DNA of 64,000 bases, taken from a virus. Its lineage: Duplodnaviria; Heunggongvirae; Uroviricota; Caudoviricetes. Numbering within the stretch: the stretch's first letter is position 1; each line of letters opens with the position of its first letter. The stretch lies in IMG/VR virus record IMGVR_UViG_3300026549_002453. One strand, given 5' to 3'. Under the pieces are notes generated by a model, which saw only the letters and a program-made list of their open reading frames with translations, was not told the DNA's origin and did not search any database. Both the position numbers and the translations under genes were made by a program. Below are positions 9,794 to 57,155 of the stretch, piece after piece.

Positions 9794-12250
9794 ATGTTAA
9801 ATATTCAATCATGGGATGATTGGTTTAAAATATGTGGAGAAAAAGCTAATGAAGTAAAGGAGTATGAGGATGAGGTATTTTTATTCTTAGACAAAGTTTA
9901 TAAGAAGGATAAAAGTGCTAAAGACCAAATTTTATTCAACCCTTTACCTGCCAATTTTTATAAAAAAGAAGAAAAAAAACTTTTAACAAAATTTATAACA
10001 GGGAGAAGCCTTTTATCAGCTCTCCTTGTTTTTTTAATATTATTTTTATTCTTAACCATAAAGTTTGGCTTTAGGTATGTTAAAAAAGCGGGTTTAACTT
10101 TATTCACTTCAGGGGGTTTTTCTGCCTTTATGGATGGATTTAAATTTAAAATTTTACCCGGGTTAGTTTTGGGGTTAATTGGACTGCTTATTACTCTCAT
10201 TATATTTTATATACTCAGACAACTAACCTTAAAATCGAGTATTAATAAACTTAAAAAGAAAGAAAGCAGGTTAGAAGAATTTTTAAAGTCGGTTCCACCA
10301 AAATATAGAAATTATGAATGTCTAACATTCATATCAGCCTTGTACTTTGAATATCCATACATTACTTTTTCTCAAGCTTTAGAAAACTGTGATGATTTTA
10401 TTAGAAAAAATAGAACAAGAAATATAAAAAGTATTTTATATGATTTACCATATGAATTATCAAACTTATCTTCAACTCAAACGGTTTTAAGAGAACAATA
10501 TAAGGAGGAGTCTGAATTTGAGGAGGAGACTTTTAAGAACCCTAATCTACCTCAGGACATAACGACTAAAACATTTAGTGGTTCCGAAGATGCTCAACGG
10601 GAGTTAAACTCTATGATAGGGTTAGATTCTGTCAAACAACAAGTGGATAGATTAAAAAATAGAATATCCTTTTACGGAGATAATATAGGAAATAGTGGTA
10701 ATCACATGGTATTTTTGGGTTCTGCGGGTACAGGAAAAACAACTGTTGCCAGAGTAATAACCAGAATTCTCTATGACTTTGGGTACATAAGTAAAAATAA
10801 GTGCGTAGAGATTGACGGGGATTACCTTAAATCTCCATATGTAGGCCAAACAGGAGAAAGAACCTCTGCCATAGTAGATTACGCTATGGGAGGAGTCCTA
10901 TTTATAGATGAAGCTTATCTTTTATATGACAAAAATAATAGCACCTCCGCAGAAGCAACTGGAGTGTTGTTAAAAGCCATGGAGGACCATAGAAAGGATT
11001 TTGTGGTTATATTTGCGGGGTACGAAGAACAAATGACCAAACTTCTTGCCTCTAATGAAGGGTTTGCTAGCAGAATCAAGCACAAAATATTCTTCCCTGA
11101 TTACACTGTTGAAGAAATGTATCAAATTTTTACATCTTTCTTAAATAATTATCATAATAATACCGTATATTTAATAGATGACGACGCTAAGGAGTTATTA
11201 TTAAAAAACTTTGCACAAGAGAAAAAGAGTAAGGCATTTGGTAATGCTAGAACTATCAGAAATGCTGTAGATGGCATTATGGATTATCATGCTGATAGAA
11301 TGATAGCAGAACAACGAAAATCAGATACAAATCAAATTACTCTTACAGATGTAAAACCTTACGTTGAAATTAGAGAAAAAGAACTCAAACAAGATATAAG
11401 AAATATGTCTGCAAATAGTCAGTTAGATGAGTCCATAATTAGATTGGCAGACTTGAAAACTAGGATCAAGGAAGGTTCCAACAACGTTCAAGAAGAACTA
11501 AAAGGAATTATTGGCATAGAAGAAATAAAAGAAGAGTTAAAAATTTTACAAAAAGAAAAAGAGTTTGATGGAACCTCCAATAAACAATTTTTATTCATAG
11601 GTACAGATGACACTGTAAAAGACCAGGTGGCCTCTATATTAACTGGATTTTTATATGAGGCTGAATATATTAGAGAAAATAGGTACCTGAGTATATCAGC
11701 CGAGTTTTTAAAAGGCTCTTATGTAGGTCATACTTCAAGGAGGACCGAAGCGATTATTTCTTATGCTAACGGCGGTGTGCTGTATATTAAGAATATAGGG
11801 TTATTATCACAACTTTCGTCTGATACTTTTTCTCAAGAAGCTATATCAATGTTGTCTTCCATGTTAAGAGAAAGTGACGATTTAACTGTTATATTGTCTG
11901 ATACCCAGGATAATATTAATAGATTTATAAGTAGTTATCCTGAATTTAAGGAATATATAACCAATACTTTTGTATTCCCATCCTACACCCCTAACCAGCA
12001 ACTACAAATATTTAATAAGCTCGCTAAACAAAATGAATTTACCATACAGGAGGAGTGTTTAAAGCTTCTATTAACTCATTTTGAACAAGCTGATAAGGCT
12101 TCTGCTCAATATGTATATAATATATTTAAGGAGGTTAGAAAAACACATATTAGTGACTATGATGAAGAAAATAAGTATGTATTAATTAAAAAAGATTTTA
12201 AAAACATATTATCCTCAGAGCAACCTAAAAAATTTAAATTAAAGTTATAG
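9794..12250 (+). CDS. membrane-anchored tandem AAA+ ATPase (SpoVK/CbbX-type); second AAA domain degenerate
   Basis: TM helices near residues 70-150; canonical AAA domain with Walker A GSAGTGKTT, Walker B LFIDEAY and arginine finger; the second module (LFIGTDDTVKD...GGVLYIKNIG) lacks the GK[ST] lysine. Confidence 0.8.
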   Translation: MLNIQSWDDWFKICGEKANEVKEYEDEVFLFLDKVYKKDKSAKDQILFNPLPANFYKKEEKKLLTKFITGRSLLSALLVFLILFLFLTIKFGFRYVKKAGLTLFTSGGFSAFMDGFKFKILPGLVLGLIGLLITLIIFYILRQLTLKSSINKLKKKESRLEEFLKSVPPKYRNYECLTFISALYFEYPYITFSQALENCDDFIRKNRTRNIKSILYDLPYELSNLSSTQTVLREQYKEESEFEEETFKNPNLPQDITTKTFSGSEDAQRELNSMIGLDSVKQQVDRLKNRISFYGDNIGNSGNHMVFLGSAGTGKTTVARVITRILYDFGYISKNKCVEIDGDYLKSPYVGQTGERTSAIVDYAMGGVLFIDEAYLLYDKNNSTSAEATGVLLKAMEDHRKDFVVIFAGYEEQMTKLLASNEGFASRIKHKIFFPDYTVEEMYQIFTSFLNNYHNNTVYLIDDDAKELLLKNFAQEKKSKAFGNARTIRNAVDGIMDYHADRMIAEQRKSDTNQITLTDVKPYVEIREKELKQDIRNMSANSQLDESIIRLADLKTRIKEGSNNVQEELKGIIGIEEIKEELKILQKEKEFDGTSNKQFLFIGTDDTVKDQVASILTGFLYEAEYIRENRYLSISAEFLKGSYVGHTSRRTEAIISYANGGVLYIKNIGLLSQLSSDTFSQEAISMLSSMLRESDDLTVILSDTQDNINRFISSYPEFKEYITNTFVFPSYTPNQQLQIFNKLAKQNEFTIQEECLKLLLTHFEQADKASAQYVYNIFKEVRKTHISDYDEENKYVLIKKDFKNILSSEQPKKFKLKL

Positions 12251-12917: not shown

Positions 12918-14486
12918 ATGACCCTAGTAAGTAGAAGAATTACAAGATATATTAGTTTATTACTAATGATAGCGTTAGTTATTGGGAACATTAGTTTTAT
13001 TTTTGCTAATGAAGGGGAACTTGTAAAAGAAAAATCCGAAATACAAAAACTCTACGACAAATATTACGAAAAGGGAGTTCTTTTACAATACGTAAATAAA
13101 GGGGAGACATACTTCTCAACTATTGATTTAGAATACCCCGAAGCACAAAATACTCAGTGTGCTCATTTTACCAATAGTTTCTATACTAATGAGTTTGGAA
13201 TTAAACTTGCAAATAGTGTAACTAAAATAAATGATCTTGAACAATCTAATGTTATTAAAACTATTCTTTATGATGATTGGAAGAAATTAGTAGAAAATGA
13301 AGAATGGAAAAAAGAATTATTATCAGACTTACAAGAGGGAGATATAATTACAGCTAGACATCCTGATTTAAATCAAAGAATTGGTCACGCTATGATGGTA
13401 TACGAAGTACTTGAAGACGACGCTATTCTTATCCATTCTACTGGTTCCAATTCTAAAACAGATTCTTGTGAGAGTGAAGTAGAAAAAGGCTTTACGGAAG
13501 GCTCTATCAGAAAAAATTATCTCTCCACTTTATTTGAAAAGAATTATGTTAATGCCGAAAGGGATATTAGAGTAGCAAGACCTTTAGCAAAAACTGTTGA
13601 GGAACCTGCAAATACTAGTAAATCTGATTCCTCTGATGAAGTTACTGTAGATACATATCAGTACAAAATTACATATAAAAATGGAATAGACAACAGTATA
13701 ATATCTGAGGAAAATGTTTCAGGAACAACTCCCATTCTTGCAATTAATGGCATAGAACCTCCTGAAATAGAGGGACACTCATTTAAAGAATGGATAAGTG
13801 ACCAAACTGTAACCCTGATTACTACAAAAGACGGTGTGAGTAAAGAAAATGAGATTGAGAGTAAAAATAGTATTAAATCTATTTTAATTTGTGTAGATAA
13901 CGAAAATGATAAAACAAATTTACTGAGTGTACAAGTTTCAGACAATACTACATTTACTGCACTGTACGAAAAATTAGAACCAATAAAAGGTAATGAAGAA
14001 AATATAAATAATATTGATAATACTACTAATGAGTCAAATTTGTACCCTAATGATGATTATCAGGGGGAAGATTTAGAAAATAATAAAACTAATAATAACA
14101 TAAAAGATGATTCTGAAGAATCTCCATTTTTAGATAAAGTAGAAAATGATAATCAAGTTAAACTAGAAGAAAAAACGGAGGACATCTCTAAAGATAATAA
14201 CAGGGAAGACACCGCAGAAGAAAAAGACCACCAAGAAACAGAGATTTTTAATATAAATGAGAATAATGATTCAAATAAGGAAAATATTGACTTAAAAAAT
14301 AATGAAAAATTAAATACAACTGAATTTATAGATAAATCCAAACAACTCACAAATACTAAGGGTGTACAAAATAACAGTACACAACCCAAAACTGGTGATA
14401 TCAATCAAATGGAACTATACTTTGTATTGATGCTGTTGAGTATTACCATAATAATAAAACTTAAATTAAATAGAAAAACTTATTAG
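12918..14486 (+). CDS. sortase-anchored surface protein with an N-terminal NlpC/P60-like cysteine peptidase domain
   Basis: Signal peptide; Cys (QCAHF) then GDIITARHPD...GHAMMVY...AILIHS matches the NlpC/P60 Cys-His-His layout; C-terminal QPKTGD sorting motif, TM helix and basic tail. Confidence 0.5.
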   Translation: MTLVSRRITRYISLLLMIALVIGNISFIFANEGELVKEKSEIQKLYDKYYEKGVLLQYVNKGETYFSTIDLEYPEAQNTQCAHFTNSFYTNEFGIKLANSVTKINDLEQSNVIKTILYDDWKKLVENEEWKKELLSDLQEGDIITARHPDLNQRIGHAMMVYEVLEDDAILIHSTGSNSKTDSCESEVEKGFTEGSIRKNYLSTLFEKNYVNAERDIRVARPLAKTVEEPANTSKSDSSDEVTVDTYQYKITYKNGIDNSIISEENVSGTTPILAINGIEPPEIEGHSFKEWISDQTVTLITTKDGVSKENEIESKNSIKSILICVDNENDKTNLLSVQVSDNTTFTALYEKLEPIKGNEENINNIDNTTNESNLYPNDDYQGEDLENNKTNNNIKDDSEESPFLDKVENDNQVKLEEKTEDISKDNNREDTAEEKDHQETEIFNINENNDSNKENIDLKNNEKLNTTEFIDKSKQLTNTKGVQNNSTQPKTGDINQMELYFVLMLLSITIIIKLKLNRKTY

Positions 14487-14499
14487 AAAGGAAATTATT

Positions 14500-14943
14500 A
14501 TGTCAGAATTTAAACAAAAAGAAAAATACACTGGGGAATGGAAAGGAAACACTATTTCGTTTAATAGAGAATGGAGTAACCATAGATTTACTGATGCGGA
14601 GTGTGAGGCTCTTTTAAAAGGACATGAAATCATTATAGAGGCAACCAGTAATAAGACAGGTAAAAAATTCAGTGTAGCTGGTAGTTTAGGGGAGGGGTTT
14701 TACGAGGGCAAGAGTTTTATAAGTTTTCAACCCAACTTTGAAAAAAAGATTATACCCATTAGTTTTTGTGGGCATGTGTTTTCTAATAAAGAAAGAAAAG
14801 ATTTAGAGGATGGTAAATCTCTAATTTTAACCGACCTTAAGTCTAAAAAAGGTACTGACTTTACTGCGAGCGTGACATTCGATTCCACAGATGGCATAGA
14901 TATGAGCTTCGATAACCTACCAAATTTAGAAAAAACCAAGTAA
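14500..14943 (+). CDS. hypothetical protein
   Basis: 147-aa ORF, well spaced from the upstream stop. Confidence 0.45.
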   Translation: MSEFKQKEKYTGEWKGNTISFNREWSNHRFTDAECEALLKGHEIIIEATSNKTGKKFSVAGSLGEGFYEGKSFISFQPNFEKKIIPISFCGHVFSNKERKDLEDGKSLILTDLKSKKGTDFTASVTFDSTDGIDMSFDNLPNLEKTK

Positions 14944-14975
14944 GATTATAAACAAAAATATAAAGAAAGGATGAA

Positions 14976-15182
14976 GTGAAATTGACAAAACAGGAAATGA
15001 TAAAAATTAAAGAAGAATTATTTTATGATAATTTTTCTATTAAAACTACCAATGTAGAAGCTCTTAAGGAGTTTTGTAGAGTTCTCACCGAGGTTACAGG
15101 TATACAATGTTGCACCTCTTTTGGGTATACCAACGAACTGCTACCCAAAATTTATAACAGCGTACTTAATACTTTAGAGTAA
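14976..15182 (+). CDS. hypothetical small protein
   Basis: 68-aa ORF. Confidence 0.3.
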   Translation: MKLTKQEMIKIKEELFYDNFSIKTTNVEALKEFCRVLTEVTGIQCCTSFGYTNELLPKIYNSVLNTLE

Positions 15183-17550: not shown

Positions 17551-18423
17551 ATGGCTTATGAAGATTATATAAGAGAAAACTTAAATAGTTTAGAAAATTT
17601 ATCCAGAAAAGATTTTCTATATTTGAGCGAGTACACAAATAACTATTTCTCTGAAAAATACAGTGAAATTCAAATAAACGAACTCTCTCAATTACTAAAG
17701 CTGGTAGGTTTAGACGATTTTCCAGATGGGTTTAAATCTAATGAAGTAATAATTACACTCAATCTTGATAGTTTATGTTTTAAGAATTCGTTTAATCAAT
17801 TATGTTTTAATGAGGATGGGCGGTTATATATCACCCCCATCCTACAGGAAGTAAGTCCTGAACAATTTAAAAAAGTCGCAAACAATATCATAAACGCTAA
17901 TAGTAAGAATACTTGGAAACATAAAAATTATAGTCTTGAAACATATAAACAATGTAATACATACTCATTTGATGACAAGTGTGCTGTAGCTATAAGGAAT
18001 AATGAAATCATTAATATTTTAAATGCATCAGGTTCTGAAGTAAATGATTTATCACTGATAGTAGAAACGGTCGCACAAGGTGGAAAATTAATCGAATGTT
18101 ATGCTTCAGATTTTAGTTATTACGTTAATGCTAAATTTATGCCCATATCGGTTTGTAAATGGGATGATAATAGAGCTCCAAAAGCATGGATTAGAAGTAA
18201 TAGACTTTCTCAAAATACTGATGAGTGGAAATATATTGTAGATGAAAATCTTAAATATCCACGGCAAGACATTATCTTTATGATATATATCGGAACAGAT
18301 ACTAATGTTACATTAAATGAGTGGATAAAGAACGTAGGATATAGTGATTCATATGAACAGGCTAAATCTACACAAATAAAGGTTTACAAAGAATTGGAGG
18401 GAATAAATGAATATAGTGGATGA
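17551..18423 (+). CDS. hypothetical protein
   Basis: AAGGAG RBS; 290 aa. Confidence 0.45.
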   Translation: MAYEDYIRENLNSLENLSRKDFLYLSEYTNNYFSEKYSEIQINELSQLLKLVGLDDFPDGFKSNEVIITLNLDSLCFKNSFNQLCFNEDGRLYITPILQEVSPEQFKKVANNIINANSKNTWKHKNYSLETYKQCNTYSFDDKCAVAIRNNEIINILNASGSEVNDLSLIVETVAQGGKLIECYASDFSYYVNAKFMPISVCKWDDNRAPKAWIRSNRLSQNTDEWKYIVDENLKYPRQDIIFMIYIGTDTNVTLNEWIKNVGYSDSYEQAKSTQIKVYKELEGINEYSG

Positions 18424-18772
18424 AGTTAAAAAAGAAACATTTTTATTTTCTGATAACCAAATAGAAAATACTATTACTAATATGCAGAATAATGAAACTT
18501 TGAATGAACTGCAAAAAGCTGACCCAGAGTATATCATGCTATATTGTTATAAAGATAAAGGTCAGTTGACTAAAGAAGAGTATGATATTGAAGTGCTACA
18601 ATATCTCTATCAACATGCACAAGGAACAAAAGAACACATTAATCAAGTTATAGATAAAAATAAAGATTGGTATGATAGTTATTATAAAGATGCAGAAAAC
18701 AATAATCTTACATATTATCATGCAGTTCAATGGGCTAGAGAAAATATGATGCATTTATTTTGTACTAAATAA
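18407..18772 (+). CDS. hypothetical protein, paralog 1 (KETFLFSD family)
   Basis: ~45% identical over its full length to the 19219..19581 product (KETFLFSD...LYCYK.KG..TKEEYD...IDKNK.W...YFHAV..AR.NMM). Confidence 0.5.
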   Translation: MNIVDEVKKETFLFSDNQIENTITNMQNNETLNELQKADPEYIMLYCYKDKGQLTKEEYDIEVLQYLYQHAQGTKEHINQVIDKNKDWYDSYYKDAENNNLTYYHAVQWARENMMHLFCTK

Positions 18773-18788
18773 TAATAAGGAAAAATAA

Positions 18789-19208
18789 ATGAATAAAGAA
18801 CAATTTATAGAAGAATTAAAATCATACTTATATAAAGAATGTGCCAGAGACTATTCTCCTGAGGAAATTAATGATGGCATAGATAAAAGAAGTAATGGAA
18901 TACAAGGATATTTAAATTTAGTCGAAGACAACGAATACGAATCGGTTGAAGAAGTTTTAAAACAAGCAAAGGAGGACTTTAGACTAATATTTTCTATATT
19001 AACATATGAAGAATTTAAACAGGAGGTAATTAAGCAACTACAAACGATTGAGCCCAGTATCCCAAGAACGCAAGAAGAAGTAGAAAAAATAATAGGTAAG
19101 GACCCTAAGTATATAGATATTCATTTTAAAAAAGCTAAAGAAAGTAATGATTATTTTCATGAAGTTGGGTTTGCTGTGAGTAATTATTACTATGCATTTA
19201 TGTATTAA
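18789..19208 (+). CDS. hypothetical protein
   Basis: 139 aa, lies between the two paralogs. Confidence 0.45.
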   Translation: MNKEQFIEELKSYLYKECARDYSPEEINDGIDKRSNGIQGYLNLVEDNEYESVEEVLKQAKEDFRLIFSILTYEEFKQEVIKQLQTIEPSIPRTQEEVEKIIGKDPKYIDIHFKKAKESNDYFHEVGFAVSNYYYAFMY

Positions 19209-19218
19209 GAGGAAATAA

Positions 19219-19581
19219 ATGAACTTAATAAACGGAGTTAAAAAAGAAACATTTCTATTTTCTGACGCAGAAATAAACCAAGCAATAGAAGATATGAAAA
19301 CTGATTCAGATTTAAACGATACACAAAGAGAAATGGCAAGTTATATTGCACTATACTGCTACAAAAATAAGGGAACTATAACAAAAGAAGAATATGATAA
19401 AGATGTAAAAGAGTATCTATATTCAATAAGCATGGATAGTAAAGAAGTAATTGATAAAATCATTGATAAAAACAAAGAATGGTTTAATAGTCATTATAAT
19501 GACGCTGTTGACGGTCTTATCACCTATTTTCATGCAGTTCGGCATGCCAGAAATAATATGATGAGTTTAGTTAGGTATTAA
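19219..19581 (+). CDS. hypothetical protein, paralog 2 (KETFLFSD family)
   Basis: See 18407..18772. Confidence 0.5.
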   Translation: MNLINGVKKETFLFSDAEINQAIEDMKTDSDLNDTQREMASYIALYCYKNKGTITKEEYDKDVKEYLYSISMDSKEVIDKIIDKNKEWFNSHYNDAVDGLITYFHAVRHARNNMMSLVRY

Positions 19582-19713
19582 AAGTTAGTAGAAAAATTAT
19601 GTAATTAAAATGTATAGCCGTAAGGCTCTAAATTACACTCTGTAGAGAGTATAAATACAAAATAAGTTAGTGTAAACAAATTCGGTAAAATCGTAAAGAA
19701 AGGATTACAAACC

Positions 19714-21189
19714 ATGAAAGAAGTAAAAGTATTAGCAAAAGATGGTCAAGAATTAATGCCTACAACAATTGAAAAAGCGAATAAACTAATATCAAAGGGA
19801 GAAGCAGAGATAGTAGAAACTTCCCCTATGACAATTAGAATACTAAAGAATACTAAAAGATATAAGCAAGAAACTCTCGGCGATAGTTATGATTTGCCTA
19901 TAACTTATGAGGAAAAGATTCCTATTGGTGTAACATACATAAATGAAGAAGTAGATTTATATTGGTCTCTTAAAAAATACTCTGAGGAACATTGGAATGT
20001 AGTATACTCGAATACTGTACTTGTTGCTGATGATGACCTTAATCCGAGCTTCTTCATTCATAACACTATTGCGAGTCTTAATTATACACCTAACATTAGT
20101 ATGATATATACAAGTAAACTAAATGGTAGTAAATATGCTTTTGCGAGAAATGTAAGAGGTTCTGCAGGTAATGATGTATCCATAGCGGACACCTCAGAAA
20201 GAGTGAAAAGGCTAATGATGGACCGCTTTAAGTTGCTTGAACAACATCAGGTTAATAGAATTGAACTCTTAAACGGAACGGTACTTACTAACTATAAAAT
20301 GTTTAATAGAGAATGGAATTGGGATGCATTATTTACTGTTGTGGATAATACAGACGCGCCTGAAAAGGCTTTCGGTAAAATGGGTACAGTGTGGCACAAC
20401 AGAAATTATTATACTATAACAATTAAAGAAATGTATGAAAAACTAAATAATGGCGAAATAAAGTACTTTACACTTGCAACACCAGTAAAAGGGGTACCAA
20501 GGCACATATTTAAGTTTGATATTGAAAAAACAGAGGGTGAATACGCGCCCCACAAAGTCATTCTTATCATAGATGACCTCGATGAAATAATGCTTTGCGA
20601 TAATTATAAAGCGGTACATACAGTTAAAGATTCATTAAGTGCAATCGCCAGATTAGGTAGAGCTGCAGGAGTATATCTAATACTTAAGTGTCAAAGGGCA
20701 AGTGGGTCTACTGTGTCTACAGATTTATTAAATAATTGCCTAATTAAAATAAGGACAGGTAATTCTTATGTAGGTCAAGATATTTTTATGTTTGATAAAG
20801 AATTACCGCCATTAAAAGATAATAGAGCATATGTACAATTTTATGGTAGAGAAGTATATGAAATACAGTCATACAACCCTCACAATATAGAACCTTGGGA
20901 TGACGTGTTTGATATAACAAAGACATCTATTGCAGAAATTCAAGCAAACACGGGATATGCAAAAGACTTCGACTTAACAGTAAAACCAAGTAAAGAACTG
21001 TTAGATAAAATAGAGGAAAGTAAGAAAGAGTATGCAAAGTTTGTAGAAGAAACTGAGTATGTATATCTTTCAAAAGGAGAAGTAAAAGATAGATTACTAA
21101 AGAAAATAAATAGTTTGGAAAAAGAAATAAGCTCAATAAAAGAAGATATTGATATGTTGTTTTCTGAATTAGATAATATTATAGAATAG
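19714..21189 (+). CDS. FtsK/SpoIIIE-like protein with degenerate Walker A and an N-terminal PLMP-like domain
   Basis: C-terminal half matches the FtsK motor signature (ILIIDDLDE...IARLGRAAGVYLILKCQRASGSTVSTDLLNNCLIKIRTGN). The Walker A position reads GSAGNDVS, so the Lys is lost. The first ~45 aa align with the PLMP domain of the IscB at 57156. Confidence 0.65.
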   Translation: MKEVKVLAKDGQELMPTTIEKANKLISKGEAEIVETSPMTIRILKNTKRYKQETLGDSYDLPITYEEKIPIGVTYINEEVDLYWSLKKYSEEHWNVVYSNTVLVADDDLNPSFFIHNTIASLNYTPNISMIYTSKLNGSKYAFARNVRGSAGNDVSIADTSERVKRLMMDRFKLLEQHQVNRIELLNGTVLTNYKMFNREWNWDALFTVVDNTDAPEKAFGKMGTVWHNRNYYTITIKEMYEKLNNGEIKYFTLATPVKGVPRHIFKFDIEKTEGEYAPHKVILIIDDLDEIMLCDNYKAVHTVKDSLSAIARLGRAAGVYLILKCQRASGSTVSTDLLNNCLIKIRTGNSYVGQDIFMFDKELPPLKDNRAYVQFYGREVYEIQSYNPHNIEPWDDVFDITKTSIAEIQANTGYAKDFDLTVKPSKELLDKIEESKKEYAKFVEETEYVYLSKGEVKDRLLKKINSLEKEISSIKEDIDMLFSELDNIIE

Positions 21190-21247
21190 AAATACGAGTT
21201 TGGCGGTATCTCATTAAAAACCACCCAATTAAAGAAAGGATGGTTTG

Positions 21248-21955
21248 ATGAAGAAATGTGGACATAAAGGATGCAAAACAAAAATAGACGAACAGTATAG
21301 GTTTTGCTATGAACATAGAAAGGATAAGTACCAGGATACTTGTTATATCCATGGGAAGACTCTTTTTTCTGAGGGCAAATGTTTAAAATGCTTAGATATG
21401 AAGCGTCCTATATATAGAATACATAAGAGAGATAATAATTATTATTTTAATAGAAATAGAAAACCTATAGATAAAGATAGTTTTATGTATCCATATTGTA
21501 AACAACTTACGCATAAAACAATATCCTATCAAAACAGGTATATGGGAAAAATTAGTAATTCAGCTGGGATATATGGCATATTTGTAAGGGATAAAAGGAA
21601 GAAGGACCAGTTAGGTGAGTGCCTATATGTAGGTCAAGCGACCGATATTTCTAGGAGGATTAAACAGCACAAGAAGAACTTTGCGACAGCAAGTAATCAT
21701 ATAAAAGGCTTAAAAGCAAGTAGTAAGAGTAGCGTTATAGTAATACCAAAGTATAAAGTAGAAGCCAAGTACTATATGATGGCTAAAGATTATTGGTTGA
21801 AAGATTTGAAGTTTGTTTGTTTATATAGGTTTGATGATAACTTTAAGAAACTATTGCCCAGCGAACAAAAGGTTTTGCTTACGTTAGAGGAACAATTATT
21901 TATAGATATTTATTCCAGTTCACTTAACACTTTTGCAGCAAGGCCAAGTTACTAA
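21248..21955 (+). CDS. GIY-YIG nuclease-domain protein with N-terminal Cys/His zinc-binding region
   Basis: GIYGIFV...YVGQATDISRRIKQH matches the GIY-YIG core; N-terminal CGHKGC...CYEH, CYIHG, CLKC. Confidence 0.6.
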   Translation: MKKCGHKGCKTKIDEQYRFCYEHRKDKYQDTCYIHGKTLFSEGKCLKCLDMKRPIYRIHKRDNNYYFNRNRKPIDKDSFMYPYCKQLTHKTISYQNRYMGKISNSAGIYGIFVRDKRKKDQLGECLYVGQATDISRRIKQHKKNFATASNHIKGLKASSKSSVIVIPKYKVEAKYYMMAKDYWLKDLKFVCLYRFDDNFKKLLPSEQKVLLTLEEQLFIDIYSSSLNTFAARPSY

Positions 21956-21965
21956 GGAGAAATGT

Positions 21966-22172
21966 ATGAGTAGTATAGCATTAGAACAACTATTTGATAT
22001 TTTACCTGAAGATTATGAATTAAGAATAGTTGATATGAATGACAAAGAACTAGCAAGATATGATGGTCGAAATTCTATTCCAGAAACGTTCAACAAAGAC
22101 AAAATCTATGAAATTAGAATTTTACGCGGAGACTGTCTTAAGATTATTTTAGACCTATTTTATGAAGACTAA
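21966..22172 (+). CDS. hypothetical small protein
   Basis: AAGGAG RBS then ATG 21966; the ORF-track start 21933 lies inside the upstream gene. Confidence 0.35.
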   Translation: MSSIALEQLFDILPEDYELRIVDMNDKELARYDGRNSIPETFNKDKIYEIRILRGDCLKIILDLFYED

Positions 22173-22181
22173 TGTGCAAGT

Positions 22182-23351
22182 ATGGAGGAAATAAAAGTGA
22201 AGCTTAACAAGGATAAAACAAAGAAAGAAAAAATCAAAAAAGAAAAACCTAAGAAAATAAAAGAAAAGCCTAAAAAAATAAAGGAGCCAAAGCAACCTAA
22301 GTTAAAAACAGAAGTTCCTAAACTAGATAAAGAAGTAACTTGGGAATATGCTCATGAGGCAGATTTAACTATAGGTGAAACTAAAATTAGTAATGTAGCT
22401 AAGGTTATTTTAATTTTACTTATTCTTGCTCTTATAGGTGCCGGTATATTTGGTTATTTAAAGAGAGATTATATTTCTGACTATATTAAACAGCCTGCTA
22501 TTGTGTTATCCACTAATGAAGTTACCCTAGAAGTAGGAGACGAGTTTGATTATAAAGACTATCTTACTGATGTCGAATATTTAGATAGATGGGCTCTTAC
22601 GTACCCAGATAATACAGAAGTGGATACAAGCAAATTAGGAGACTATACAGTACAATATAAATTGCAATCCTTGGCTAATGAAAGCTCTTCAGAGTTGGTC
22701 GTTCATATCGAGGATAGCACCCCTCCAACAATTAAATTAAAGGAAACTATGATTAAGTTAGAGCGTGGAGAACAAACTGAAAAATTTGATGCCAGTAAGT
22801 ATATCCAAGAAATAAAGGATAACTATGATAAAAAGGAAGATATTGAAGTAACGTACACAACGACGGTAGACTGGACCAGGGATACGGTCGAAATAGATTA
22901 TACTGTGGTAGATAAATCAGGAAATACTGGCACTGCAAAATTAAATATAGCAGTAACAGACCCTCCCAAGGAACCTGAAGTAGTATACGTTGAGGTTGAG
23001 GTTCCAGTTGAAACTCCTGCCCCATCAAATGATGTTTCCAGCAGCGGTTCATCCGGAGGTAACAGTGGAGGTAATACATCTAGTAGTAATACAGAACAAC
23101 CTTCTAGTGGTAACTCGGGTAACAGTAGTCCACCTCCCTCTCAAAATCATTATATAAATGGAGTGCACAACTTTTCGGTTAAGGTGGGGGATTTAAACAC
23201 ATTTACTGCTGAAGTACAAAGTGGAATTAGCTCAGATGAAACTATATCCGTGGACTATAGTTCTGTAAATCTTAGTGTACCTGGTAGTTATACTGTTACA
23301 TATTCAACAGCGCACGTGACTAAATCGGCCACGGTTACGGTTGTTGAATAA
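22182..23351 (+). CDS. type-II membrane-anchored surface protein with Ig-like (DUF5011-like) domains
   Basis: Lys-rich N-terminus, one TM helix, extracellular repeats, Ser/Gly-rich linker; paralog of 25724..26986; start may be GTG 22197. Confidence 0.55.
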   Translation: MEEIKVKLNKDKTKKEKIKKEKPKKIKEKPKKIKEPKQPKLKTEVPKLDKEVTWEYAHEADLTIGETKISNVAKVILILLILALIGAGIFGYLKRDYISDYIKQPAIVLSTNEVTLEVGDEFDYKDYLTDVEYLDRWALTYPDNTEVDTSKLGDYTVQYKLQSLANESSSELVVHIEDSTPPTIKLKETMIKLERGEQTEKFDASKYIQEIKDNYDKKEDIEVTYTTTVDWTRDTVEIDYTVVDKSGNTGTAKLNIAVTDPPKEPEVVYVEVEVPVETPAPSNDVSSSGSSGGNSGGNTSSSNTEQPSSGNSGNSSPPPSQNHYINGVHNFSVKVGDLNTFTAEVQSGISSDETISVDYSSVNLSVPGSYTVTYSTAHVTKSATVTVVE

Positions 23352-23461
23352 ATATATTTAATTACAGTACTATGGGGAGCAAAAGGAGTAGCTACCTATG
23401 TGAGATAAGAGTGCCTATATCACTCAGCCATAGTCGGTATATCTTATATAGGAGGATATTT

Positions 23462-25672
23462 ATGATAAGAAAAAATGAGTTAAAATATGTAAATTGTTTG
23501 ATTTGTGGGGAATCAAAATCTGTAACTGGACTACCGAATCATGTTAAACACAAACATGGCATACCGCCTGAAGAATACTATCTTAAATTTTTTAAAAAAG
23601 ATGATAATGATGGAAAATGTCTAACTTGTGGCAAACAGATGACGTTTAAAGGAATATTTAAGGGTTATAACAGATTTTGTAGTAATAGTTGCATAAGAAA
23701 AAATCCATCTATTATTGAAAAAACAAAACAAAATAATTTAGAAAAGTACGGTACAGAATGGGCAATATCTGCCCCTCAGACAAGAAGAAAGATTGAACAA
23801 ACTACATTAGAACATTATGGGGTTAAATGTAATTTGTCTTCTCAAAAAATAAGAGAAAATATAAAACAGACGTGTCAAGAAAAATATGGTGGAAATGCAC
23901 CCGCTTGTAATAAAGTAGTTAAAGACAAGATGATAAGTACTAATCGAGAAAGATATGGTGTCGATTTCTATAACAATATAGATAAAACACGTGAAACTAA
24001 TTTAGATAGATATGGCGTTACATGCACTTTACAGGCTAAAGAAGTAAAAGAAAAAATTAAAAAGACAAACTTAGAGAAGTATGGAGCAGAAAATGTATTT
24101 GCCTCAGAAGAAGTAAAAGAAAAAATTAAAAATACTAACATAGAAAAATATGGCTTTGAATATAGTATACAATCAAAAGAGGTTCAAAATAAATGTAGAA
24201 ATACCATGATTAAAAATCATGGAGTTGAATATACTTGGCAGTCTCCAAAATTATTTAAAAAAGTTGTTGATACTAAGATAGAAAGGTATGGACAAAACTA
24301 TAAAGTAAAAGAACGGGAAAAACAGAAAGAGACACTGCTTCAAAGGTATGGAGTAGAAAATCCTATGCAGTGTGCGGAAATTAAGGCTAAAGCAAAAAAT
24401 ACTAACATAGAAAAATATGGAGCTGAATTTTATGCACAAACAGCTGAATTTCATAAAAATAAACTGACAAAATATTGGTACAATAACGTAACCTTTGACT
24501 CTTCTTATGAGCTTTGCTTTTATAGATATTGTCTTGACCACAATATAGATATTGTTAGAAATACAGATTCATTTAAATATGTGTTTCACAATAAAACACA
24601 CTTATATTTCCCTGATTTTGTAGTAGAAGGAGAGTATGTAGAAATTAAAGGTGCCCAATTTTTTGAGGATGGGAAAATGATAAACCCATATGATAGGTCT
24701 CAGGATGCTTTTTATGAAGCTAAACATCAATGTATGATAGAGAATGGTGTAAAAATTATAACTGATTGTACAAGATATATAGAATATATTAATTCTATTG
24801 ATAAAAACTTTTTAGATAAGTGCAGTTTAAAAAGAAAATTAAACCTAGATTGTTTAGAGTGGAAAAAGTTAACAGATGGAAAACAGAGAGTAATAGATAT
24901 TGCTAAAAGGGCAACCGGTGAGGAATTTTATAAAAGAGAATTATCTTTCTGGGAGCAAAATCCAGAGCAAAGAAAGATATTATTTGAAAATAGACTAAAA
25001 TATATACATAAACAACCAAACGAACTCTCCGATTTAGAAATTCTTAGAGGGATAAGCATTTCTGGTAAGGTTAGAGCTTATTCACATTTTGACAACGCTG
25101 GAATGAAAAAATTTATAGAAAAATACAATATTCATTCAATATATGATCCCTGTGCAGGTTGGGGTGAGCGATTGATTACTTGTGCCGCATTAGGCATTGA
25201 ATATAAAGGGATAGATATAAATCCGAATGTTGTAGAAGGGCATAAAAGAATAATTAAGCACTATAATTTAGATAAAAATAAGTACCAAGTATATTGCTGT
25301 GATTCTGGTAGCCAAAGTACAGAAGATAATTTAACTAACGAATATGATGCTACATTTACTTGCCCTCCATATTGGAATGAGGAAATTTATACAGATGCAG
25401 GTGCAGAAAACTTGTCATATAAAGAGTTTTTAGACTGGTGGAAACAAGTAATCATAAATTCAAACACAGATTTATTTGCATACCAAATAAATCAAAAATA
25501 TAAAGAAGATATGAATAAGGTTTTAAAGGATTTGGGGTATGAATTCATTGAAGAAATTATCTTACCTCAAAAAAGTAGTCATTTTACAAGAGAAAAAAAT
25601 GGTGTAAATAAGAAAAAAGAGTATGAAAGTATTCAAGTTTTTAAACTACCTACAGCAAAACCTCGAGTTTAA
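23462..25672 (+). CDS. multidomain protein: zinc fingers + 11 tandem ~30-aa KYG repeats + PD-(D/E)xK nuclease-like core + N6A/N4C DNA methyltransferase
   Basis: GGAGGA RBS then ATG 23462. Two Cys/His clusters at the N-terminus. Eleven repeats of the form K.K.TN[LI]EKYG.E....S.EVKEKI. A nuclease-like core (YFPDFVVEGEYVEIKG). SAM motif I (IYDPCAGWGERL) and motif IV (FTCPPYW). Confidence 0.75.
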   Translation: MIRKNELKYVNCLICGESKSVTGLPNHVKHKHGIPPEEYYLKFFKKDDNDGKCLTCGKQMTFKGIFKGYNRFCSNSCIRKNPSIIEKTKQNNLEKYGTEWAISAPQTRRKIEQTTLEHYGVKCNLSSQKIRENIKQTCQEKYGGNAPACNKVVKDKMISTNRERYGVDFYNNIDKTRETNLDRYGVTCTLQAKEVKEKIKKTNLEKYGAENVFASEEVKEKIKNTNIEKYGFEYSIQSKEVQNKCRNTMIKNHGVEYTWQSPKLFKKVVDTKIERYGQNYKVKEREKQKETLLQRYGVENPMQCAEIKAKAKNTNIEKYGAEFYAQTAEFHKNKLTKYWYNNVTFDSSYELCFYRYCLDHNIDIVRNTDSFKYVFHNKTHLYFPDFVVEGEYVEIKGAQFFEDGKMINPYDRSQDAFYEAKHQCMIENGVKIITDCTRYIEYINSIDKNFLDKCSLKRKLNLDCLEWKKLTDGKQRVIDIAKRATGEEFYKRELSFWEQNPEQRKILFENRLKYIHKQPNELSDLEILRGISISGKVRAYSHFDNAGMKKFIEKYNIHSIYDPCAGWGERLITCAALGIEYKGIDINPNVVEGHKRIIKHYNLDKNKYQVYCCDSGSQSTEDNLTNEYDATFTCPPYWNEEIYTDAGAENLSYKEFLDWWKQVIINSNTDLFAYQINQKYKEDMNKVLKDLGYEFIEEIILPQKSSHFTREKNGVNKKKEYESIQVFKLPTAKPRV

Positions 25673-25723
25673 CTAAACTATAACTGTTACCGTAACAGAG
25701 TATTATTATTGAAAGGAGGTAAT

Positions 25724-26986
25724 ATGGATAAATATCCCATGAACTGGAAGTATGCGGGCAAAGCTGAAGTAAATATGAAGGAAAAAAAGAGCCTTAACAT
25801 AAAAGTAATAATTTTAATATGCGTGTTGATTCTTTTTATTGTATTGGGGTCCTTAGGGTTTATATACAGACACTATATTATAGACAAGTTTACTAACCCA
25901 TACTTTGTTCTTACTACTGAGGAAACAGAGATTGAAGTAAACTCAGAGTTTGACTATTCTATATATGTAGGGGATAACTCTTGGCCAACTAGATACGAAG
26001 TGATATACCCAGACTCTTCTCAAGTAGATACCTCAAAACTAGGTGAATATAACTTAGAGTTTATATTAAAGACCGAGGCTACCGAAAATGTATCCAACCT
26101 ATTGGTGAAGGTGGTAGATACCACTCCGCCGGTTCTAGAGCTTACTGCTGAAGAAATATCATTGACTAAGGGGGAGGAAACTATGGAATTTAACCCCGAG
26201 ACCTACGTTAAATCTATGACTGATAATTATGATAAGAGGGACAACCTAACTCTAAATTATTCTAATATTTTAGATTGGAGTGGTAGTGAGGTATGGGTGG
26301 ATTACACCTTGGCTGACACTTCAGGCAACAATAGTAAGGCTAAACTTAAAGTACTAGTACTAGACGAAGAAAAGGACTTTGGGACAGTAGTGGTTGAATA
26401 TGTAAACACTGAAGGAACACCTATAATTGAGGATGGTGTGGTATTTAAAGCAAAGATAGGCACTCCCTATAAAACAGAGCAAAAAGATATTCCTGGATAC
26501 ACTTTTAAAGAATTGGGTAAAAATTCTGCCCCAAAAGAAGGTGAAATAGAGAGAGGAGAACTGAAGGTTGTTTACGTGTATGAAAAGGTTGAGGAAGAAA
26601 AAAAGGAAGAGGTTCCTAAGGTAGAGGAAAGCAAGCCCAAGGAGGATAACCCTAGTACTGAAGGAGAGTCAACAAGCGCCTCTCAAGACTCCCAAAATGT
26701 TCAAAATTCCCAAGAATCATCCTCATCTACAGAACAAAGTAGTTCTTCTTCAACATCCGCCGCACCCAGAGGCCATTATATAGATGTAGATAATATTACT
26801 GTAAAAAAAGGAACTTCCTTAGACCAGTTTATATCTATCCTACAATCTAGTATAAAGTCAGATGAAGAGGTACAAGTACTGTTCGGTGCAGTGTCTCAAG
26901 AGTCACTTAATACTCCTGGCAAGTATACTATAACTTGCCAATCTGCCAATGTGACCAAGGATGTCATTGTAACTGTCACCAACTAG
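25724..26986 (+). CDS. membrane-anchored surface protein with Ig-like and MucBP-like domains
   Basis: AGGAGG RBS; one TM helix; region collinear with 22182..23351; VVVEYVNTEGTPI...GYTF...VVYVYEK fits a MucBP domain; Ser-rich linker. Confidence 0.6.
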   Translation: MDKYPMNWKYAGKAEVNMKEKKSLNIKVIILICVLILFIVLGSLGFIYRHYIIDKFTNPYFVLTTEETEIEVNSEFDYSIYVGDNSWPTRYEVIYPDSSQVDTSKLGEYNLEFILKTEATENVSNLLVKVVDTTPPVLELTAEEISLTKGEETMEFNPETYVKSMTDNYDKRDNLTLNYSNILDWSGSEVWVDYTLADTSGNNSKAKLKVLVLDEEKDFGTVVVEYVNTEGTPIIEDGVVFKAKIGTPYKTEQKDIPGYTFKELGKNSAPKEGEIERGELKVVYVYEKVEEEKKEEVPKVEESKPKEDNPSTEGESTSASQDSQNVQNSQESSSSTEQSSSSSTSAAPRGHYIDVDNITVKKGTSLDQFISILQSSIKSDEEVQVLFGAVSQESLNTPGKYTITCQSANVTKDVIVTVTN

Positions 26987-39089: not shown

Positions 39090-39204
39090 GTGTGAACATT
39101 AGGTACTCTGGCCTAAAGAGTTTAAATAATGCAGTCCGCCGACGGTTAGCCTAATTTCATATATGAGTTTAGCAGTATCTCATTAAAAACTGCCTCCCCT
39201 TTCT

Positions 39205-39275
39205 GGCGGGATGATGCAATGGTAGCAAAAGAGACTCATTCTCTCTTAGTTTTGGTTCAAGTCCAAATCCCGCAA
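39205..39275 (+). tRNA. tRNA-Met/Ile(CAT)-like element, atypical
   Basis: Hand-folded cloverleaf: acceptor stem GGCGGGA/TCCCGCA (one mismatch), D-arm with GG, anticodon stem AGAGA/TCTCT with loop CTCATTC (anticodon CAT but T at position 37), T-arm TTTGG-TTCAAGT-CCAAA; no encoded CCA. Confidence 0.4.
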
Positions 39276-39355
39276 GACTTATGTGTATACAACCTTGACG
39301 TGGTATAAGTCCTTTAAACTAATAGTATACAATTATTTTAAAAAGGAGAAGTATA

Positions 39356-40487: not shown

Positions 40488-41384
40488 ATGAAAAAGTTAA
40501 TGCCAATACTTATATCTTTAATCTTAGTATTACAAGCTGCGCCTGTTTTTGCAGAGGAACTTAACTTTAAAGAGGTTAATCCTAATGAAACAAGTGTTAC
40601 TATTAATATTGATGTATCACTTCCTTCTACTGTAGAAATAACAGGAGATGGGTATTTACCTGAGCAATCAAAAGTGGACATTGAAACTTCACATAGTTTT
40701 ATATTAACCTACACAGATGTTGGTGAATATACCTATCAGATTAAACAAATTCCAAAAGAAGATGGAATAGAATACGATAGTACAATCTATGATATTCATG
40801 TTAGTGTCGTTAGGGAGAATGGTTGTTTAATAGCAAGAATGTCAGTAAATATTAGCGGAGAAAAAGAAAAAGAAACTAATATATCATTTAATAACACTAA
40901 GCCAAGAGAAAATGAACTAATCATTAAGAAGGTAAATGAAGAGGGACAGCCTCTTGAAAATGCCAAGTTAGTTATTTTTAATGGCAGCAAGATAATTGAT
41001 AGTTGGACAACAGATGGAACTGACCATAAAATTAGCTTACTTAACGGTACTTACACTATACACGAAGAATTTGCTCCCGAAGGATATATAAAAATTAAAG
41101 ATTTTGAATTAAAGGTTACTGAAAGCAGTTTTTCTATTGAAGAAATAGAAAATGTAAAGTTAGAAGGAAATATTCTTACCATTACTGACTCTATAGAAGA
41201 AAAGCCTGAAGAACCACAGACTCCTCCTAAACCAGAGGAACCAAAAACACCAGAGCAGCCTAATAAACCACATACTCCTATAAAAACAGGAGATAATACT
41301 AATATAATTGTGCCTATAGTTGTATTCGGTACAACAGGAATTGCTCTTTTAATTATGTTGTTGCTAAAAAGAAAGGATAAATAA
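40488..41384 (+). CDS. sortase-anchored surface protein with CnaB-type domain(s)
   Basis: Signal peptide; CnaB-like signature (LENAKLVIFNGSKII...TTDGTDHKISLLNGTYTIHEEFAPEGY); C-terminal PIKTGD motif, TM helix and KRKDK tail. Confidence 0.7.
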   Translation: MKKLMPILISLILVLQAAPVFAEELNFKEVNPNETSVTINIDVSLPSTVEITGDGYLPEQSKVDIETSHSFILTYTDVGEYTYQIKQIPKEDGIEYDSTIYDIHVSVVRENGCLIARMSVNISGEKEKETNISFNNTKPRENELIIKKVNEEGQPLENAKLVIFNGSKIIDSWTTDGTDHKISLLNGTYTIHEEFAPEGYIKIKDFELKVTESSFSIEEIENVKLEGNILTITDSIEEKPEEPQTPPKPEEPKTPEQPNKPHTPIKTGDNTNIIVPIVVFGTTGIALLIMLLLKRKDK

Positions 41385-56539: not shown

Positions 56540-56809
56540 ATGAAAACATTAAAAGAAGATTGGCAAGCTCAACAAGATTGTGACCCTAAGGCTCACGGAG
56601 TAAATCCATTAGAAATTAAAGGAGTAACTATAACTCTCACCCATTCGGATAGCGGCGGATTTATGATTGGGTTTAATGTACCCGGCAGAGGTACTTGGTC
56701 AGAGCCTGTGTCTGATTATAAAGATTTTTATGATGCTCTTGGACACATATTTGTAGAAGAGGGAGGTATAATGGATAACTTATTGTGTAAAGGAACTCTA
56801 TTAGAGTGA
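56540..56809 (+). CDS. hypothetical small protein
   Basis: AAGGAG RBS. Confidence 0.4.
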   Translation: MKTLKEDWQAQQDCDPKAHGVNPLEIKGVTITLTHSDSGGFMIGFNVPGRGTWSEPVSDYKDFYDALGHIFVEEGGIMDNLLCKGTLLE

Positions 56810-57155
56810 ACGAGTGCACACCCTGAAAGTGCCACTTTCACAAGCATAGCTTGAAGTGTATGCACCTTCGGGTACAAGACGTTCACAAGACTTAGGTTGG
56901 AGAAATCCTACCTACGTTAAATAGGTTATGACACCCATGGATGTTGGGCAAGACCATTGCTCTGTCGATTAGTTTTAAGTTGAATGCTAGTGTACAGATA
57001 GTTCTGTGAACTAATTATGTAAGCCTATTTAACATTGTCGATGCCAAGTCCGACACTTATTATGGTAATATTAGTAAGTTAGGCACTACAGTCATTAGAA
57101 GTACTGGTTTATAGCGTAAAACTTCTAAAATATCTACAGAAAGGAGCTAAAGCGT
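56810..57155 (+). ncRNA. candidate IscB omega RNA / structured 5' leader
   Basis: 346-nt non-coding stretch, more GC-rich than the surroundings, directly upstream of iscB. Contains several local hairpins, e.g. GAAAGTG-C-CACTTTC and ACC-TTCG-GGT (a UUCG tetraloop). IscB omega RNAs lie 5' of iscB. Confidence 0.5.

Follow-up and report, generated by a model that had tools for sequence, protein, structure and literature searches.

A predicted PLMP–FtsK fusion protein with a degenerate ATPase site and a candidate structured leader RNA

Results

A two-part protein encoded behind a conserved leader

The gene considered here is an open reading frame (ORF) at 19714..21189 on the plus strand of IMG/VR virus record IMGVR_UViG_3300026549_002453 (Caudoviricetes), within a stretch of 64,000 nt that we call the window. 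An earlier note on the same DNA had described this ORF as an FtsK/SpoIIIE-like pseudo-ATPase carrying a PLMP-like N-terminus. The ATG-to-stop frame of 491 aa has exactly the coordinates and strand given there, and every peptide string quoted occurs in the translation. The protein, P0001 in our set, is identical to a database protein known from a single contig of 253,880 bp. Four parts can be distinguished, all on the plus strand: a PLMP domain (residues 1-46; 19714..19851), a linker (residues 47-65; 19852..19908), an FtsK/TcpA-like body of RecA fold (residues 66-390; 19909..20883), and a predicted C-terminal coiled coil (residues 427-490; 20992..21183). A Shine-Dalgarno (SD) sequence, AAAGGA (19699..19704, +), is read 9 nt before the ATG, and its GGA/GGAG is kept in all loci that carry the fused gene. 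Directly before the start codon lies a conserved structured leader of ~98 nt (19616..19713, +), present once in the window and once per fused locus.

The linker begins with the basic T47-K48-R49-Y50, and the remainder is predicted to be disordered. These four residues are invariant in an alignment of eight fused sequences (A2); in two members outside that alignment, P0130 and the protein of locus L011, position 49 is His. Since residues 48-64 have a predicted local distance difference test (pLDDT) value below 50 in the AlphaFold2 model, the PLMP domain is best pictured as tethered to the body by a flexible linker of ~17 residues rather than packed on it. The model used throughout was built from an 80-sequence alignment; a previous one, from 14 sequences, had an unreliable N-terminus (pLDDT ~50). 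The body includes a family-specific insertion of ~90 residues at ~185-275. The coiled coil (model helices 427-447 and 454-490; alignment A1) is found in members of 480-490 aa and is missing in those of 308-350 aa.

The N-terminus is related to the PLMP domain of IscB

Several searches agree on the identity of the first residues. The likeness to the IscB encoded at 57156, on which the earlier note had built its reading, goes beyond chance: 18 of 46 residues are identical (39%; BLASTP, single comparison, E=2e-7). Residues 4-53 match positions 1-50 of 174 in the Pfam profile RRXRR (PF14239), which describes the IscB N-terminus (E=1.2e-7, 32.2 bits against a gathering cut-off of 25 bits), and the homologs P0003 and P0006 likewise score above that threshold. 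A profile made only from N-termini of the fused clade, with no IscB inside, finds residues 2-44 of the IscB PLMP in PDB entries (E=4.6e-6 to 1.1e-5), and IscB or IsrB account for 9 of the 10 PDB matches listed.

The structural model points in the same direction. Residues 1-45 are modeled at pLDDT 90-96 as b1 (3-7), b2 (13-18), a1 (19-27), b3 (31-35) and b4 (40-43). Residues L14-M15-P16, in the local sequence E13-L14-M15-P16-T17, sit on strand b2; L14, M15 and T17 are invariant across the fused clade, and some members have S or A instead of P16. The PLMP fold of an IsrB (DtIsrB) consists of a four-stranded sheet and a helix (PMC9581776), and the predicted fold of the fused domain agrees with that published description, the comparison being one of description, with no superposition of the isolated domain. 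From profile matches and model together, residues 1-46 read as a true PLMP domain. We also considered an IF3-N identity for this segment and rejected it, for Pfam gives no IF3 match at E<=10, whereas RRXRR is significant. A homology search with the PLMP part alone, for other architectures, returned only ORFs of <=98 aa, which are truncated IscB N-termini running into the RuvC-I motif LGxDTGS, and was uninformative.

The rest of an IscB does not follow. The RRXRR match stops at position 50 of 174, and Pfam gives no HNH match in P0001 at E<=10. P0001 thus falls outside the OMEGA nucleases, with neither a RuvC-like or HNH domain after the PLMP nor a HEARO-type ωRNA upstream.

The FtsK-like body has lost its catalytic motifs

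The C-terminal part is FtsK-like, as the earlier note had stated. Residues 158-330 match positions 106-220 of 221 of the Pfam FtsK_SpoIIIE profile (PF01580; E=7.9e-6, 25.9 bits, with a gathering cut-off of 24 bits), and PHROG 1358, an FtsK/SpoIIIE-like family, matches P0001 at 2.5e-9. In a Foldseek search of the PDB the first hit is TcpA (6o1w, 7.5e-11), followed by FtsK (2ius, 6.5e-10) and EssC (4lya, 1.4e-9), with TMt of 0.5-0.58; TcpA is also the best PDB match by sequence (phmmer, E=0.006).

The position of the lost Walker A motif had to be corrected. It had been placed at GSAGNDVS (residues 149-156; 20158..20181, +), but that segment aligns with GVKGV--ALDV, a stretch downstream from the P-loop of intact relatives. 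The equivalent of their GGTGSGKS is A105-DDDLNP-S112 (20026..20049, +), which the model places between strand 101-105 and helix 109-122 and which has Pro111 in place of the Lys. The string ILIIDDLDE, quoted as Walker B, is degenerate as well, the catalytic Glu of V282-ILIID-D288 (20557..20577, +) being replaced by Asp288. The FtsK-family RAAG motif, in contrast to these two, is retained (R313-LGRAAG-319; 20650..20670, +). Asp288 and, within the RAAG motif, R313, L314 and G315 are invariant in the family (D288 in alignment A2).

This pattern extends across the fused proteins. The Glu position of Walker B is Asp in all 11 fused members, which read [D/N/S]-D, whereas the five intact relatives all read D-E. 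The P-loop is degenerate in 10 of the 11, whereas GGTGSGKS is kept in five of five membrane-anchored relatives. P0002 retains GxxxxGK, with D instead of S/T, and P0144, a singleton lineage, is the only fused member with a canonical P-loop (VGKSGTGKST). A search for an intact Walker A elsewhere therefore has two answers: none exists in P0001, which has no GxxxxGK[ST] in its 491 aa, and one does exist in its homolog P0144. The loss of the P-loop Lys and the pseudo-ATPase assignment come out better founded than originally argued, given the Walker B and P-loop losses across the family. P0001 has the FtsK/SpoIIIE profile match, the RecA-like fold and the RAAG motif, and it lacks the Walker A, the Walker B and the N-terminal membrane anchor; these features support its classification as an FtsK/SpoIIIE-like pseudo-ATPase. 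Because P0144 keeps its P-loop, the alignment further indicates that the fusion is older than the decay of the catalytic motifs.

The PLMP domain stands where intact paralogs have a membrane anchor

Some homologs are membrane-anchored, 650-725 aa long, and carry both GGTGSGKS and hhhhDE. A hydropathy scan places two N-terminal transmembrane (TM) segments in five of five such long relatives (peak 2.4-3.1). The same scan finds no N-terminal TM segment in the fused proteins; the maximum 19-residue hydropathy of P0001 is 1.17. Homology between fused and long forms starts at a conserved IPLG motif directly after the linker, which argues that the PLMP domain has replaced the two-TM anchor and juxtamembrane region of the intact paralogs. 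An intact membrane-anchored FtsK-like gene lies less than 10 kb from the fused gene in three other elements (L001, L006 and L012/13), and in L012 an intact-type paralog is the very next gene after the fused one, split by an insertion.

Some side observations concern these intact genes. In L012 the N-terminal half (11043-12224) holds the TM segments and AGATGGGKSV, the C-terminal half (14441-15103) holds VVVDELAEL and LGRSAGIHLLLATQRPS, and the 2.2-kb insertion between them consists of four ORFs. For the intact gene of L006 the call is limited to the C-terminal part (1334-2572), beside a DUF7487 gene. The N-termini of P0012, P0016, P0017 and P0018 read, at the protein level, ...YYGFTLE...NG[IV]x[LF]HN|SGKSV, which resembles intein blocks F and G with the +1 Ser after them, splitting the P-loop as GGTG|SGKS. 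Selfish insertions thus seem to target the intact membrane-anchored FtsK-like gene.

A structured leader accompanies the fused gene

All nine distinct loci share the conserved ~100 nt before the ATG. The window has a single copy of the signature AGYCKTAAGRCNNWAAATTA, at 19616-19635, and each of 12 fused loci has one copy, which invariably precedes the fused gene; the signature is missing from L003 and L004, loci that hold only the non-fused gene. A covariance model of the leader (R1) gives the window copy 106.5 bits and the copies at the fused loci 100-123 bits apiece; with filters off, the rest of the window never exceeds 17 bits.

Four hairpins (HP1 to HP4) make up the leader, all on the plus strand. 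HP1 (AGCC-GTAA-GGCT; 19616..19627) has four base pairs and a GNRA-type loop; its columns 25-28/33-36 in alignment A5 are 97% paired, with a compensatory change from C-G to U-A. HP2 (ACUCU-GUAG-AGAGU; 19637..19650), of five base pairs, shows double-sided changes in four of the five and appears as four different stems among the nine loci (ACUC/GAGU, AGAC/GUCU, AGCC/GGCU and AGUGA/UCACU); an invariant extension at 19633-19635/19652-19654 is possible. HP3 (UAGU-GUAA-ACAA; 19668..19679) again has a GNRA-type loop, and its columns 85-88/93-96 are 89% paired, with an A.A mismatch in the window copy; pair 87/94 is CG in five loci, GC in three and UA in one. Of the four, HP4 (CGG-UAAAA-UCG; 19683..19693) is weakest: pairing in columns 105-107/117-119 reaches 95%, with G.U/U-A covariation, its register varies, and it is deleted in L011.

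Over the whole leader 92.8% of the cells are paired, compared with 23-45% when the partners are slid by one to three columns, and double-sided changes affect 7 of the 16 pairs. The leader has a covariation score of 0.406; slid alignments give at most 0.061 and shuffled ones at most 0.135, none of 500 of the latter reaching 0.406. RNAalifold independently recovers HP1 and HP2. GUAA loops cap HP1 and HP3 in eight of nine loci, GTAA being enriched about four-fold, and 9 of 138 cells are G.U pairs; both the G.U pairs and the GUAA loops fit the sense strand only. Upstream neighbor genes vary between loci while the leader stays, at a constant distance from the ATG, which argues that it belongs to the fused gene. 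We regard the leader as a candidate new RNA motif with no counterpart in Rfam.

Other identities for the leader were tried. As far as similarity can be detected, derivation from the 3' tail of an ωRNA is ruled out; the single copy rules out a repeated motif of a promoter or regulon; and an upstream ORF finds no ATG conserved across loci. As a side observation, seven of nine loci have UUAC, the complement of the GUAA loops in HP1 and HP3, in the linker between HP1 and HP2 (19633-19636 in the window) and directly after the SD (19705-19708); loop-linker pseudoknots of only 4 nt are therefore possible.

Distribution and selection

We searched 1.84 billion representative proteins with a profile built from eight fused members. 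Among 1,443 FtsK-like matches, only P0001, P0002, P0008, P0130, P0144 and two fragments match from profile position 1. The fused family amounts to about nine lineages (counted as 90%-identity clusters plus one IMG/VR locus), is known only from metagenomes, and bears no protein name in any source. No match was found by tblastn of the protein in INPHARED phages or PLSDB plasmids, and a protein-pattern search found no relative in 185,579 GTDB species-representative genomes or in JGI metagenome contigs. A search with the DNA signature of the leader returned as its sole contig the 250,568-bp one already known from IMG/VR. The intact fused ORFs of these lineages come from independent samples and assemblers.

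We observed a large difference in conservation between the two halves of the protein. Among 11 fused members, the PLMP domain (residues 3-50) has a mean pairwise identity of 75% (minimum 58%), the body one of 32% (minimum 22%). Recent recombination could produce such a difference, and codon usage speaks to this possibility. At conserved residues, the window gene and six others use the same codon in 48-60% of cases in the PLMP domain for five of them (37.5% for one) and in 42-54% in the body. Since same-codon use is similar in the two parts, synonymous sites appear equally diverged, which points to protein-level selection on the PLMP domain and makes the head the constrained part of the protein. 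Recombination is thereby ruled out as the cause for six of seven pairs; it is possible for the pair of the window gene and L001, which at 78% same-codon use in the PLMP domain hints at recent exchange.

Host elements and surroundings of the gene

The host elements are phage- or plasmid-like, ~250-500 kb in size, and belong to Gram-positive rumen and gut bacteria. Contigs with the fused gene measure 254 kb, 250,568 bp (IMG/VR, classed as viral) and, for the others, 38-103 kb, from samples that include rumen assemblies. In the window, all ORFs of >=200 aa that are not nested in a longer ORF lie on the plus strand, GC content is 29-37%, and GC skew is positive throughout. Its genes include many of Gram-positive surface or secretion type (CWB2, Band_7, BspA-LRR, MucBP, FctA/SpaA and DUF7601 pilin-like proteins, an M23+NlpC/P60 hydrolase, a CAAX protease and Toprim_Crpt/DUF3945), together with TnpB, IscB, a UvsX-like recombinase and a methyltransferase; we found no hallmark of a virion within its 64 kb. 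The surface-gene run comprises, on the plus strand, the DUF7487 gene (23372-25672), the MucBP gene (25709-26986), the M23+NlpC/P60 gene (31006-33840), the FctA/SpaA gene (40488-41384) and a DUF7601 protein of 2362 aa (41388-48476). Homologous loci have a similar neighborhood, with sortase, signal peptidase S26 and TraG/TrwB-type P-loop proteins.

Immediately downstream, an ORF at 21245-21955 with a weak Pfam match to GIY-YIG (E=2.8e-4) separates the fused gene from an Ig-like surface-protein gene (22182-23351). As these two genes are adjacent in L001 and L002, the intervening ORF looks like a homing-endonuclease insertion. Just upstream, two paralogous small ORFs of 121 and 120 aa (18407-18772 and 19219-19581), which share VKKETFLFSD, LYCYK.KG..TKEEYD and IDKNK.W, flank an ORF of 139 aa; neither paralog matches a family.

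The IscB element of the window (56806-58439) consists of a HEARO/ωRNA at 56806-57053 (Rfam, 83.9 bits) and an IscB of 427 aa at 57156-58439, which is genuine, with a full-length RRXRR (1-174) and an HNH domain. Relatives with 57-75% identity are found on numerous IMG/VR contigs (170-284 kb), one genome of 247,792 bp holding as many as four copies, and the last ~125 nt before their ATG align with covarying hairpins of their own, unlike the leader of the fused gene. A TnpB-type gene (OrfB_IS605 plus a Cas12f1-like TNB domain, 407 aa) occupies 50417-51640, and a similar one lies in L012 at 1621-2844. The only tRNA of the window is a tRNA-Met (CAT) at 39204-39276. An ORF of 522 aa at 12918-14486 has no Pfam or PHROGs match and a nonsignificant PDB match (E=0.21); as a counterpart of the TraG-like protein of L001 it was rejected, the two being unrelated. 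Finally, an FtsK-like relative is carried by L047 (GCA_017465005.1, JAFTXA010000001.1, 504,301 bp), deposited as a metagenome-assembled genome of a 'Bacilli bacterium'. The surroundings of that gene look like those of a phage (HNH, thymidine kinase, PARP, T5orf172 and numerous small ORFs of no known family), and L047 may be a huge phage binned as a bacterium.

Discussion

A proposed function

We suggest, with a probability of roughly 45%, that the fused protein serves as a noncatalytic adaptor or as a regulatory subunit, and that its PLMP head binds a specific ligand, probably the leader of its own gene. The FtsK-like body, together with the coiled coil where present, would join an active membrane-bound paralog or form a ring of its own, and the head would recognize the ligand, for which the structured leader on its own mRNA is the likeliest candidate. 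The PLMP domain of IscB and IsrB contacts the terminal hairpins of the ωRNA, and in IsrB this contact extends to the SD region directly 5' of its own ORF (PMC9581776, PMC9640706). The order of hairpins, SD and PLMP codons is the same in the fused gene, and for this reason we propose the leader as ligand. The simplest outcome would be translational autoregulation through leader binding.

In a more ambitious version, protein and leader would form a standing ribonucleoprotein (RNP) that feeds or gates a translocase. Specifically, a PLMP domain captured from IscB would be a self-sufficient module for recognizing hairpins, displayed six-fold on an inactive FtsK-like ring, and the RNP formed with the GNRA-loop leader would gate or load the membrane motor. 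We consider this extended form improbable. If true, it would amount to an RNA-dependent, non-guide control of DNA translocation derived from a part of an OMEGA nuclease, and it would reveal the native function of the PLMP domain.

Several observations weigh against leader binding or against the leader as an RNA. The fused PLMP domains have a mean net charge of +0.8 (range 0 to +3), compared with +8.1 ± 1.5 (minimum +4) for 82 IscB N-termini. Acidic residues have come in (GEAEIVE for KAKVVR, EKANKLI for GKVRRLL), and the only basic patch is the K-TKRY-K motif that follows b4. With its basic character lost, a near-neutral domain of this kind argues against backbone binding of the ωRNA style. On the RNA side, Rfam has no match at E<=10 in 18500-22500, the leader model matches nothing upstream of 18 IscB genes or of the IscB of the window, and the structure of the leader was derived from the same nine sequences on which its pairing was tested. 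The promoter is not placed, as scans for promoters and terminators gave counts close to those in shuffled sequence and were uninformative; an invariant TATAAA 3' of HP2 may represent a -10 box, in which case HP1 and HP2 would fall outside the mRNA. As to the paralog that the adaptor would join, no intact FtsK-like gene lies within the 64-kb window.

Alternative explanations

A first alternative is that the PLMP domain was repurposed as a protein-protein docking module, with the leader as an independent cis-regulatory RNA that is bound by something else or acts through its structure. In IsrB and IscB the domain does make extensive protein contacts, with RuvC (RuvC-I) and TI; the near-neutral surface with its acidic replacements is in line with such a role, and the very high conservation of the head would suit a conserved protein partner. 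Yet no RuvC-like gene, or other obvious conserved partner gene, adjoins the fused gene in all loci, and the co-inheritance of the leader with the PLMP gene, and its absence from non-fused paralogs, would then be a coincidence. We consider docking the strongest of the rivals, though an unlikely one, with a chance of about one in four in our judgment.

A second alternative moves the function of the hairpins from RNA to DNA: the block, in the form of ssDNA hairpins or inverted repeats, would be a cis site (pac-, oriT- or ssi-like) for FtsK-like translocation, which the PLMP-pseudo-ATPase marks for an active motor. Proteins of the FtsK/TcpA family act on DNA, the best structural match of P0001 is a conjugation coupling protein, and conjugation-associated domains and TraG/TrwB-type P-loop proteins lie near the gene in L001 and L012. 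Many sites of this type adjoin the gene for their recognition subunit, GNA/GNRA loops are stable in DNA as well, and no conserved promoter is found upstream of HP1. Against this, the nine G.U cells (of 138) would read as A.C mismatches on the opposite strand and, in DNA, as weak G.T pairs. The block also keeps a fixed distance to the SD and ATG and runs into them, as an mRNA leader would. Transcription of the region is almost certain, since all genes point the same way and no terminator separates them. A DNA-level site thus seems to us distinctly less probable than docking.

Far less credible is the idea of an ωRNA decoy, in which the free PLMP domain would compete for the terminal hairpins of ωRNAs and so restrain the assembly of IscB RNPs. 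IscB/ωRNA elements do proliferate in these elements (<=4 copies in one 248-kb genome), the window itself holds one with its HEARO RNA, and the fused PLMP domain is homologous to that of IscB. However, the basic surface is lost, no IscB lies within 10 kb of the fused gene at any other locus, and the position of the gene is conserved in a neighborhood of surface-protein and FtsK genes, not beside IscB. Moreover, the leader has no detectable relation to ωRNA tails, and the FtsK-like body would be left with no role.

The two weakest readings can be dealt with briefly. That the gene is a functionless, pseudogene-like relic or an assembly chimera could be argued from the lost catalytic motifs and the fast-diverging body, but it is effectively refuted by the intact ORFs of about nine lineages, recovered from independent samples by independent assemblers, the purifying selection on the PLMP domain, the invariance of D288, R313, L314 and G315, and the covariation in a conserved leader. 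That the protein is a still-active NTPase using a noncanonical site, as the canonical P-loop of P0144, the GxxxxGK of P0002 (D for S/T) and the retained RAAG motif might suggest, is hardly tenable given the window P-loop ADDDLNPS, in which Pro takes the place of Lys and three residues are acidic, and the loss of the Walker B Glu in all members.

Significance

The fusion matters for the PLMP domain, the role of which in IscB and IsrB the literature calls 'still unclear' and which was earlier described only inside OMEGA nucleases. Reviews report it solely in IscB, IsrB and IshB, and our literature search found no account combining PLMP and FtsK, so that the fusion appears to be undescribed, in agreement with what the earlier note had supposed. 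A 50-residue PLMP domain freed from its nuclease, together with a 100-nt leader, offers a simple and testable system for PLMP recognition, in a host element that reuses part of a selfish RNA-guided nuclease. For the FtsK/TcpA family, the gene adds a free-standing pseudo-ATPase paralog, which bears on motor regulation in huge phage- or plasmid-like elements. The reach is limited to about nine lineages, restricted to uncultivated rumen and gut elements.

Comparison with known systems

The closest comparison for the head is with the PLMP domain of IscB, IsrB and IshB. The two share significant homology, the LMP(T) on b2, and a place at the extreme N-terminus directly after small hairpins and the SD. 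They differ in that the fused domain is nearly neutral, has no HEARO/ωRNA upstream, and is not packed against a nuclease but joined through a disordered linker to an unrelated fold.

For the body, the nearest relative of known structure is TcpA, the FtsK/SpoIIIE-type conjugation coupling protein of the Clostridium perfringens plasmid pCW3 (PDB 6O1W-6O1Z). P0001 and TcpA have in common the RAAG motif and the setting of a Gram-positive mobile element, and the membrane-anchored relatives of P0001 resemble TcpA in layout. P0001 itself has no TM anchor, P-loop or catalytic Glu, carries the ~90-residue insertion and a C-terminal coiled coil, and is only ~11-12% identical. With the FtsK motor of E. 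coli and P. aeruginosa (PDB 2IUS, 2IUT, 6T8B) it shares the RecA-like alpha/beta fold and the Pfam FtsK_SpoIIIE match above cut-off; the differences are that the catalytic motifs of P0001 are dead, that the protein is predicted to be soluble, and that its match is limited to profile positions 106-220. Pfam gives no match in P0001 to the gamma (KOPS-reading) domain.

Degenerate members of the FtsK family have precedents in the type VII secretion system, where domains D2 and D3 of EssC/EccC are FtsK-family folds that are non- or weakly catalytic and serve regulation or substrate docking. P0001 resembles them in fold (PDB 4LYA, 4NH0, 4N1A; Foldseek matches at 1e-9). There, however, degenerate and active domains share one polypeptide, a membrane protein with an FHA domain, whereas P0001 is a separate, soluble polypeptide with a PLMP head.

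Lastly, the leader can be set beside those of autoregulatory proteins, such as the ribosomal-protein leaders and T4 RegA, gp32 and gp43. No sequence or Rfam relation links these to the leader of the fused gene; the likeness is one of layout, with gene-specific covarying hairpins that end at the SD of a gene for a protein with a putative nucleic-acid-binding domain. Viewed against all of these systems, the fused protein reads as two known parts in a new combination.

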